Shown piece after piece: positions 5,600 to 6,817 of a DNA stretch of 6,817 bases (its first letter is position 1; every line of letters starts with the position of its first letter). Source of the stretch: a virus (taxonomy: Duplodnaviria > Heunggongvirae > Uroviricota > Caudoviricetes). A model generated the notes under the pieces. The model saw only the letters and a program-made list of their open reading frames with translations, had not been told where the DNA came from and did not search any database. The position numbers and the translations under genes are program-made. Location: IMG/VR virus record IMGVR_UViG_3300009622_000013, one strand, 5' to 3'.

Positions 5600-5904
5600 T
5601 GACCACATTTACCAATAAAGAACTGATTAAAGAAATCAAAGAACGAATCAGCAGCCTAGAGGTTCGAGACGATATTGAGCGCCGTGCTTATGAAATCGCA
5701 CTCGTATCTCTGGAAGTAGAGCCAGATGAACGCGAAGCCTATGAATTATTCATGGAAAAGCGTTTCGGTGACTTAGTAGATCGTCGGAGAGCAAAAAACG
5801 GCGATAACGAATACATGGCATGGGATATGACTCTCGGTTGGATCATCTGGCAGCAACGAGCTGGTATCCATTTTTCAACAATGTCACAACAAGAGGTGAA
5901 ATAA
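5599..5904 (+). CDS. yfdT: Prophage protein of unknown function, 101 aa
   Basis: ATG at 5599 is translationally coupled to yfdS. The product MTTFTNKELIKEIKERISSLEVRDDIERRAYEIALVSLEVEPDEREAYELFMEKRF.. is charged and helical. It is the last gene of the yfdPQRST block. Confidence 0.75.
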   Translation: MTTFTNKELIKEIKERISSLEVRDDIERRAYEIALVSLEVEPDEREAYELFMEKRFGDLVDRRRAKNGDNEYMAWDMTLGWIIWQQRAGIHFSTMSQQEVK

Positions 5905-5916
5905 TAGAGCCATACA

Positions 5917-5945
5917 GCCTCACACTCGATGAGGCCTGTCAGTTT
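5917..5945 (+). terminator. Weak candidate terminator hairpin downstream of yfdT
   Basis: Stem GCCTCA (5917-5922) / TGAGGC (5930-5935) with loop CACTCGA, followed by CTGTCAGTTTCTT. Short stem and interrupted U-tract. Confidence 0.25.
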
Positions 5946-6000
5946 CTTAAAATATCCTGATCTACCATCGCCGTCATAGAGCGTATTTTTATTACCTGAT

Positions 6001-6016
6001 TTGCAGGTTCGATTCC
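6001..6016 (+). other. Orphan tRNA T-arm-like fragment (TTGCAGGTTCGATTCC), not part of an intact tRNA
   Basis: Contains the canonical tRNA T-loop motif GGTTCGATTCC preceded by GCAGG. The complementary 3' T-stem strand and the acceptor stem are absent, and no cloverleaf can be drawn. By recollection it matches the T-arm of tRNA-Arg argW. Confidence 0.45.
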
Positions 6017-6035
6017 CTATTCGGAGATAGCACTC

Positions 6036-6236
6036 ATGCAACACGAACTACAGCCTGATTCACTGGTTGATTTGAAATTCATCATGGCTGATACTGGCTT
6101 TGGTAAAACCTTCATCTATGACCGGATTAAGTCAGGCGACCTGCCAAAAGCCAAAGTTATCCACGGGCGAGCAAGATGGTTATATCGTGACCATTGTGAA
6201 TTCAAAAATAAGCTCTTAAGCCGCGCCAATGGGTAA
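6036..6236 (+). CDS. torI: Excisionase-like recombination directionality factor / Tor response-regulator inhibitor, 66 aa
   Basis: ATG at 6036 is preceded by GGAG. The product MQHELQPDSLVDLKFIMADTGFGKTFIYDRIKSGDLPKAKVIHGRARWLYRDHCEFKNKLLSRANG is recognised from memory as TorI (AlpA/Xis-like winged helix). It lies next to the att core, as expected for a recombination directionality factor. Confidence 0.85.
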   Translation: MQHELQPDSLVDLKFIMADTGFGKTFIYDRIKSGDLPKAKVIHGRARWLYRDHCEFKNKLLSRANG

Positions 6237-6309
6237 AATAGCGGGTAAAATATTTCTCACATCTAAAAAACACCATTCCAATCAATCCCCTGCTGCTTCA
6301 AGTAGATGT

Positions 6310-6324
6310 CTGCAGGGGACACCA
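6310..6324 (+). other. Putative attR core: 15-nt copy of a tRNA 3' end (CTGCAGGGGACACCA) marking the prophage/host boundary
   Basis: The sequence ends in the acceptor-stem/ACCA-type terminus of a tRNA and by recollection equals the 3' end of argW tRNA-Arg. No upstream tRNA body is present, so it is a partial duplicate as expected at the att site distal to the integrase. It is flanked by torI (prophage) and dsdC (host). Confidence 0.6.
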
Positions 6325-6419
6325 TCCTTGTGTTTATCCCTAAAACCACATAAAAACCGTAAATTAAATTCGAACTAGCAGGCCGAATAAGGCACACCAG
6401 GAACTCGTGGTTTTATTCA

Positions 6420-6755
6420 TTATGAAGTGGTTTTTACCTGTTCTCTTAGCCAGATAATAAACGCTTCAATTTTTGGCCACTGCCTGCCCGGTAATGTGGT
6501 GATGTAATAATGCTGATGGCATTTCACCGTCATATCGCCAAACGGCGCGACGAGCTCACCACTGGCAAGCCTTTTTTGTACCAGGCGTTTTCTTCCCATC
6601 GCCACCCCAATATGATTCATCGCGGCAATAACAGCTAAATCAGAACGATCAAAGCCAATTCCAGAAGATGTCGGCAAATTAACCGCATAATGTTGCGCCC
6701 AACTATGCCATTCATCCGTACCGGAGTCGTTGCTCCATGCCTGTCTGTCATGGAG
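6420..6755 (-). CDS. dsdC: LysR-family transcriptional regulator, C-terminal part only (D-serine deaminase activator); upstream part replaced by a fold-back palindrome
   Basis: The minus-strand ORF ends ..HDRQAWSNDSGTDEWHSWAQHYAVNLPTSSGIGFDRSDLAVIAAMNHIGVAMGRKRLVQKRLASGELVAPFGDMTVKCHQHYYITTLPGRQWPKIEAFIIWLREQVKTTS, a LysR effector-domain C-terminus recognised as DsdC. The first 17 residues of the track ORF (MPFIRTGVVAPCLSVME) are encoded by the reverse-complement arm of the palindrome and are not native. Confidence 0.7.
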   Translation of the reverse strand, partial: LHDRQAWSNDSGTDEWHSWAQHYAVNLPTSSGIGFDRSDLAVIAAMNHIGVAMGRKRLVQKRLASGELVAPFGDMTVKCHQHYYITTLPGRQWPKIEAFIIWLREQVKTTS

Positions 6756-6817
6756 CTCCATGACAGACAGGCATGGAGCAACGACTCCGGTACGGATGAA
6801 TGGCATAGTTGGGCGCA
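6694..6817. repeat. Perfect 124-bp palindrome (62-bp arms, no spacer, centre between 6755 and 6756) running to the window end
   Basis: Bases 6756-6817 are the exact reverse complement of 6694-6755, checked block by block. The centre is GGAGCTCC. Confidence 0.95.

Follow-up and report, generated by a model that had tools for sequence, protein, structure and literature searches.

What are two fragments of one tRNA doing on either side of a phage excisionase gene? The question is raised by the virus record IMGVR_UViG_3300009622_000013, whose 6,817 nt are treated here as a whole (the window) and are identical over 6,756 nt to Escherichia coli K-12 (strain ER1709). The window corresponds to the right-hand portion of KplE1/CPS-53, a defective prophage, and comprises tail-fibre remnants, yfdN-yfdT, torI, the right attachment site attR, and the start of dsdC. 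The gene torI (6036-6236, plus strand), known from its open reading frame (ORF), its RefSeq annotation, and the literature, encodes the recombination directionality factor (RDF), or excisionase, of KplE1. A sequence-only reading of this DNA had noticed two strings of a tRNA 3' half flanking torI and had left the upstream one unexplained. The downstream string, piece 2, is simply the attR core of KplE1, formed by the original argW 3' end that stayed in place after phage integration. The upstream string, piece 1, is a second copy of tRNA sequence that is kept in the leaders of torI and its relatives, and it is a candidate DNA operator by which a protein of the module, with IntS or TorI as the partner, would restrain torI expression. 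The comparisons given below suggest a probability of about 0.5 for this reading.

Two strings of argW around torI

The argW reference was taken from an unoccupied yfdC-argW-dsdC site (L003:541-615), which ARAGORN calls as tRNA-Arg (CCU). Piece 1, TTGCAGGTTCGATTCC (6001-6016, plus strand), is identical in 16/16 positions to argW nt 46-61; it runs from the T-stem 5' strand through the T-loop to the second base of the T-stem 3' strand. Piece 2, CTGCAGGGGACACCA (6310-6324), matches argW nt 61-75 exactly, and the match extends 60 nt into the original argW-dsdC spacer, as an attR predicts. A chance match to argW is ruled out by the number of exact 16-mer matches expected in the phage part of the window (1.4e-4) and by the longest argW match among 300 shuffles (13 nt). 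The T-arm-like segment reported at 6001-6016 is therefore real, the assignment to argW holds for both strings, and torI does lie between them. The description of the strings as non-overlapping and joinable stands in part: they tile argW 46-75, with the single base C61 common to both, and are not strictly non-overlapping. Piece 1 was rejected as a tRNA gene or pseudogene because neither ARAGORN (0 calls in the window) nor the Rfam tRNA model finds a cloverleaf; a scan of 5850-6450 matched no Rfam family and gave no tRNA match even at E<=10.

The assignment of 6310-6324 to the attR core agrees with the duplicated 16-bp KplE1 core published as CTGCAGGGGACACCAT (PMC2951348), which occupies 6310-6325 on the plus strand. 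KplE1 is integrated between yfdC/argW and dsdC, and at the other prophage end (K-12 attL, L344), argW is intact, closes with the same core, and is adjoined by intS. The locus is that of a KplE1-type attR, with the core at both ends and torI adjacent to it, intS being opposite; arm-type repeats and an integration host factor (IHF)-like site are also present, as judged by sequence only.

The anatomy of this core was studied by aligning the DNA to the left of TGCAGGG in tRNA register in 32 distinct relatives. Positions -9 to -4 read TTCGAT and agree with the tRNA T-loop in 88, 100, 62, 97, 94, and 81% of the lineages, and positions -3/-2 are an invariant GT where the tRNA carries TC. Across the 7-bp TGCAGGG, the phage half-site GATGT(C/A) and GACACC form an inverted repeat, which is perfect in the Salmonella phage g341c (GGTGTC-TGCAGGG-GACACC). 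We infer a refined core anatomy composed of a left half-site, a 7-bp overlap (TGCAGGG, 6311-6317, plus strand), and a right half-site (B', GACACCA, 6318-6324, plus strand). The deduced phage core-type half-site C, TAGATGTC (6303-6310, plus strand), is a diverged T-loop copy in tRNA register; relatives have TTCGATGT(A/C), and the K-12 form is degenerate.

Piece 2 and the recombination module are already known. The window is the attR end of the argW-type module of KplE1, HK620, Sf6, and CUS-3 (attL-intS ... torI-attR; Panis, Ansaldi and co-workers), with which it has in common the 16-bp core, torI, the GGGTAAAA repeats, the IHF-like site, and the yfdC/argW-dsdC integration site. The attR described for this module (135 bp in vitro) starts inside torI and excludes piece 1. 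A T-loop-like element in the torI leader is unmentioned in the accessible literature on KplE1 recombination, a set that leaves several key papers outside, and within that set, the tRNA identity of piece 1, its family-wide constraint, and its boundary position are undescribed.

A conserved element in the xis leader

Leaders of xis were collected from genome and viral collections, giving 50 distinct sequences, of which 35 carry the motif TTnCA-GGTTCGATTyC(C). It lies 5-8 nt upstream of the Shine-Dalgarno (SD) sequence in most lineages, and in the window, the torI SD, GGAG (6023-6026, plus strand), begins 6 nt past piece 1. The motif is found in phages and prophages of E. coli, Shigella, Salmonella, Citrobacter, Serratia, Pantoea, Erwinia, and Edwardsiella; the comparison with related argW prophages that the sequence-only reading had proposed thus finds the T-arm fragment conserved.

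The constrained part of the motif is the 11-mer GGTTCGATTCC (6006-6016, plus strand) with the invariant core GTTCGATTnC. Among the 35 distinct motif-bearing sequences, its mean pairwise identity of 0.916 compares with 0.604 at the four-fold sites in xis and 0.44-0.50 for the flanks, and it comes close to the 0.93 of codon positions 1+2, so that the 11-mer is conserved to the degree of protein-coding positions. The overall values are 0.91 for the 11-mer, 0.55-0.65 for third positions of xis, and 0.40-0.50 for the flanks. When one representative was taken per lineage (13 lineages), 2/11 columns of the 11-mer were variable, against 45/50 xis third positions (Fisher p=5e-6) and 18/18 flank columns (p=5.5e-6). 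The flanks are unrelated between lineages both on the left (TTTGCA, CTTCCA, ATGACA, TTTACA, ACGCC) and on the right (CTATTC, CAAACT, CTGTCC, CGGTAC, TGATAT). The motif is kept in g341c and Emek, whose Xis proteins are ~48% identical to TorI, and it has undergone two independent tandem duplications, one with a period of 16 in Erwinia phages (L004/L127/L131) and one with a period of 15 (L124). Across the 13 lineage representatives, the 16-mer of piece 1 is identical to argW at 10-16 of 16 positions, which supports a single old tRNA-derived origin. Taken at the level of sequence, these comparisons show that the element is under purifying selection across Enterobacterales phages, is optional, and is sometimes duplicated in tandem.

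The conservation does not come from tracking the host tRNA, a possibility that was rejected because the host T-stem is constant (GCAGG/CCTGC, all attR cores reading ..TGCAGGGGAC..) whereas a single position of the phage flank is variable (TT[G/C/A/T]CAGG). Family members with another tRNA target were not found in the search, so this test is limited to argW-type members; two viral-contig scans with divergent Xis queries gave 0 matches. Outside xis leaders, the 14-mer in phage genomes falls mostly in phage tRNA genes or in scattered matches. A coding role as an N-terminal extension of Xis was also rejected, since the distance from motif to ATG varies by non-multiples of three between lineages, and in K-12, an in-frame TGA at 5997-5999 likewise runs counter to it. 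Many database "excisionase" ORFs are N-terminally extended (75-116 aa) and read through the motif (L215:2528-2791, P0003, P0008, P0009, P0013, and others), and gene 19 of g341c is annotated from GTG; the variable frame and spacing suggest that such extended excisionase starts are mis-called. In Pantoea lineages without the motif (L022/L023, L025), other operator-like repeats stand ~60 nt upstream of xis, namely GTGACAGCGTCATGTCAC and two copies of TGTTGnCATATAnCnACAT, which suggests that the xis leader may be a general regulatory hotspot.

How might such an element act? Piece 1 is an orphan copy of the attB left half-site at the 5' edge of the mobile torI-attP-intS module, travelling with it between the upstream terminator and the torI SD. 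A module-encoded protein bound there would gate excisionase expression, and hence prophage excision, by adding a roadblock or repression step to that terminator. IntS is a candidate partner that must recognise the same sequence in attB during integration, and TorI is another, as the core of its sites, GTTCG, lies in piece 1 (6007-6011). The invariant GTTCGATT holds both GTTCG and TTCGAT, the latter being common to the phage C and the tRNA B half-sites. If only one of the two proteins were to be named, IntS alone or TorI alone, the odds would be less than even in either case. TorI and IntS repress PintS by binding to att sites, and int and xis are transcriptionally uncoupled in this phage family. 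In the published view, excision is governed mainly by how strongly the RDF gene is expressed, yet the same work calls the torI promoter and the control acting on it uncharacterised (PMC2951348). Piece 1 would provide a precise, mutable candidate for the missing control point of torI (RDF) expression, for which K-12 KplE1 and the phages HK620, Sf6, and Kapi1 can serve as model systems. A more specific version, an "attB-mimic" operator in which the core-binding domain of the integrase or TorI sits on the host half-site copy and couples recombinase occupancy to RDF expression, seems rather unlikely; if true, it would be a previously unrecognised layer of control in the excision decision of HK620, Sf6, and KplE1, and it would explain why the copy has stayed tRNA-like instead of drifting to the phage-optimal half-site.

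The protein-bound operator has several observations to contend with. TorI sites have the core GTTCG with flanks [C/T]A-GTTCG-[C/T] (PMC2951348), and in piece 1, positions -2 and +5, invariant pyrimidines in those sites, are purines. When a TorI weight matrix was trained on 40 sites taken from eight distinct P' arms, the training sites scored 2.8-15.7 (median 13.1), and piece 1, at -2.8, falls below all of them. With regard to IntS, piece 1 keeps the weak tRNA-like GATTCC, not the phage-optimal GATGTC, and has no convincing inverted partner. The motif is missing from 15 of the 50 leader lineages, including those of the viable isolated phages vB_Kpn_Chronis and vB_EhrS_49, and sporadic single-nucleotide polymorphisms (SNPs) occur in the motif of some E. 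coli prophage copies. Piece 1 also lies 197 bp outside the 135-bp attR that is enough for excision in vitro (PMC3509656) and is thus not needed for it there. Finally, the near-fixed spacing to the SD fits a role at the RNA level equally well.

Simple identities with the known protein sites were rejected. A canonical TorI site does not agree with the matrix score or with the arrangement, as piece 1 is single, lacks 10- or 20-bp phasing, and has duplicates with a 15-16-bp period. An IntS arm-type site is not compatible either, as arm sites are of the GGGTAAAA type with TAAA, to which piece 1 has no similarity. As an IntS B-type half-site, piece 1 matches the attB left half-site and ends at the deduced boundary between B and the overlap; what follows GATTCC is CTATTCG and then GAGATA, which agrees with GACATC at only 4/6 positions and is at the same time the SD region.

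The sites I1-I5 of TorI on attL, which also repress PintS, have the GTTCG core and its orientation in common with piece 1, and both stand in a regulatory position beside a recombination gene. The TorI sites, however, form a 10-bp-phased array, whereas piece 1 is single, has different flanks, and carries five more invariant bases (ATTnC) that they lack. Blocks of tRNA identity in attP, by which a phage supplies the 3' part of the tRNA, resemble piece 2 with its diverged left flank, and a divergent relative (L218) has the long uninterrupted form. In contrast, piece 1, a further copy lying ~300 bp away from the crossover, has neither the overlap nor the right half-site, so it cannot restore the tRNA or serve as a crossover site.

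History and rival roles of piece 1

The reading with which the locus began, that the torI module was inserted into a longer tRNA-homologous attP arm, would make both pieces parts of one continuous stretch of attP (or argW) into which a segment of ~290 bp carrying torI was placed. The tiling of argW 46-75 with one common base speaks for it, as does L218, whose Xis is ~38% identical and which has an uninterrupted T-arm-plus-acceptor block, CAGGTTCGATTCCTGTAGGGGACACCA, at its core, indicating that long tRNA blocks occur in this family. The same sequence counts against the insertion, since its xis and P arm lie upstream of the continuous block and no leader motif is present, an order which implies that xis already stood ahead of the tRNA block in the ancestral layout (downstream of the block, L218:2705-2800 holds P'-like arm repeats, with no integrase gene called). 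Moreover, the flank on the core side is not unrelated to piece 1: TTCGAT is already in tRNA register to the left of the overlap in the 32 relatives, and the invariant GT beside it forms the inverted repeat with the right half-site. The core thus has its own T-loop-derived half-site, overlapping piece 1 in tRNA coordinates, so that piece 1 duplicates sequence already at the core instead of continuing it. Had a segment entered at C61, the left half-site would have been lost and attP inactivated; the leader copy of the Serratia and Pantoea lineages (L013/L016) runs to CCTG and so overlaps the core in tRNA coordinates, and a chimeric query joining the argW 5' part to the torI leader was covered to >=80% in 0 of 5,426 complete E. 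coli genomes. The neat tiling needs no insertion, because both pieces are bounded by one landmark, the boundary of half-site and overlap between argW nt 61 and 62, where the required attP/attB identity starts and the half-site copy ends. A splitting of the tRNA halves by torI, which the sequence-only reading had offered, is accordingly a misreading and is regarded as highly improbable. Its other suggestion, that of a leftover from an earlier or secondary att site, may be right about the origin of piece 1, although the strong constraint on the 11-mer means that it is no decaying relic now. Piece 1 probably goes back to an old capture or duplication of the tRNA/att T-arm; possible routes are duplication of the att T-arm, capture from attL, and secondary-site recombination ending at the boundary of half-site and overlap. 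A scar of that kind, produced by aberrant excision, secondary-site integration, or T-arm duplication, might simply ride along with the module without function. Such a neutral origin would suit the tRNA identity, the place at the very module edge beside a mosaic junction, the absence from 30% of lineages, the dispensability in vitro, and the SNPs in a few prophage copies. Neutral DNA, however, would diverge like the flanks and synonymous sites (0.40-0.65), while the 11-mer stays at 0.91 with 9/11 columns invariant in 13 lineages, and the independent variation of both flanks runs counter to a recent spread of the whole leader. RecA recombination requires a minimal length of homology, and at 11-16 nt, gene conversion from host tRNAs is unlikely. 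A neutral scar is therefore considered improbable.

Two functional alternatives to a protein-bound operator concern the promoter and the messenger. Piece 1 might belong to "pI", a cII-activated promoter for integrase expression, given that the HK620 record annotates a "phage integration" promoter (L002:1806-1844, window 5991-6029) and a cII site (L002:1807-1819, window 5992-6004), with a "pI" annotated by homology in Sf6. The position is analogous to that of the lambda-type cII-dependent pI, directly at xis or shortly before it and facing int, and these two records annotate it so; the disagreement lies in the spacing of the repeats, the -10 element, and the conservation across lineages. The canonical cII site of lambda and P22 is TTGC-N6-TTGC. 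Here, the repeats are TTGC-N5-TTGC, with TTAC in K-12; E. coli copies differ in the first half-site (TTGC/TTAC/TTTC), the second TTGC is missing in other lineages that still keep the 11-mer, and a scan found no σ70-like -35/-10 pair in K-12 or HK620. In addition, the motif is linked to the module, whereas cII genes reside in a different mosaic block. On these grounds, a σ70 or cII-dependent promoter is not supported as the identity of piece 1, and a share in pI is held to be very doubtful. Alternatively, the element might work in the mRNA ahead of torI, where, by mimicking a T-loop or by pairing as an anti-SD (ATTyCC with GGAGAT), it would adjust how the excisionase message is translated or processed. 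The nearly constant distance of 5-8 nt to the SD would suit this, as would an ATTyCC/GGAGAT helix with 86% of cells paired; there are also T-arm-like hairpins in the L019 and L013 groups, and leaders of the L014 type fold with a z of about -2. For 20 diverse leaders, however, RNAalifold predicts no consensus structure, most single-sequence z-scores range from 0 to -1.2, apparent double changes are alignment shifts and not real covariation, and no Rfam or tRNA model matches. Pairing alone would not demand the invariant GTTCGATT, and the ATTyCC/GGAGAT pairing, judged from the aligned leaders, is a trivial complementarity of two independently conserved elements. A role in the RNA is hence thought unlikely, and the DNA operator remains the favoured reading.

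Borders and arms of the module

The homology of K-12 with HK620, Sf6, Kapi1, and related phages spans 5986-6325, so that piece 1 stands 15 nt inside its left edge, and in several lineages, the homology between modules starts at the motif itself. Just upstream lies a start-less stub of an SfII/P22-type excisionase gene (5904-5960, plus strand), which has ATA for ATG, 18 codons, and a TGA; it reads ATA GAG CCA TAC ... ATA TCC TGA, and its translation, EPYSLTLDEACQFLKIS followed by the stop, aligns with SfII Xis MEPYSLTLDEACHFLKIS, which continues with RPTAINW. These first 18 codons of an SfII/P22-type xis occur just upstream of the module in K-12, IME10, g341c, and Emek, and in each, the homology to SfII xis breaks off at an identical nucleotide, behind ...ATATCC (5957). 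The shared break inside xis implies that the torI-attP-intS module replaced an SfII-type xis-int module at an illegitimate junction; in K-12 and g341c, the motif sits just inside this junction with the truncated foreign xis.

In many lineages, including HK620, Sf6, and most E. coli relatives, the motif lies directly 3' of an intrinsic terminator. The K-12 counterpart (5966-5992, plus strand) is degraded, reading GCCGTCATAGAGCGTATTTTT where relatives have GCCGCATCAATGCGGTTTTTT or GCCGCCTGATGGCGGTTTTTT, and a terminator scan detected the HK620 terminator (L002:1783-1802) and none in the window. Decay of the terminator in K-12 may allow read-through from yfdP-yfdT into torI.

The sequence-only reading had also proposed a search for integrase arm-type or TorI-binding repeats between the two pieces, and a normal P arm was found there, with two arm-type repeats and an IHF-like site. 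The direct GGGTAAAA(T) repeats, of the IntS arm-type class, start at 6231 and 6243 (6231-6251, plus strand). The arm-type sites of the P' arm have a common TAAA motif (PMC2951348), and the HK620 record annotates the stretch homologous to the arm repeats as an attP repeat (L002:2045-2067). The IHF-like site, AATCAATCCCCTG (6280-6293, plus strand), was recognised from its sequence and includes CCCCTGC (6287-6293), a perfect inverted repeat, 18 nt apart, of GCAGGGG in the core (6312-6318); the CCTGC of the P arm is invariant or nearly so in the 32 lineages and overlaps the IHF-like site. The 135-bp attR substrate extends over 6213-6347, as its length and primers are published (PMC3509656) and primer attR-IHF2 maps to 6213-6232.

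Other TorI-type sequences were seen in and around the family. On the minus strand at 6040-6052, within codons 2-6 of torI, a TorI-like site, TGTAGTTCGTGTT (with TAGTTCGT in codons 3-6), scores 6.7 with the weight matrix and, together with the GTTCG of piece 1, flanks the torI start as an inverted pair; it is unconserved in relatives and probably due to chance. In L222:2700-2975 (Xis 44% identical), the P'-arm repeats at the TorI-site positions are of the TTCCG type, not GTTCG, which looks like co-variation between the RDF and its putative binding sites. In K-12 attL (L344:884-1002), the GTTCG of the argW T-loop is 31 bp from TorI site I1, and I1 and I2 are 20 bp apart; these roughly helically phased spacings imply that the argW T-loop could be an extra TorI-type element in attL.

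The last 61 nt of the window (6757-6817) are the exact reverse complement of 6694-6754, and K-12 continues differently at this point. They are a hairpin (fold-back) assembly artefact at the contig end, inside dsdC, and have no bearing on the tRNA pieces.

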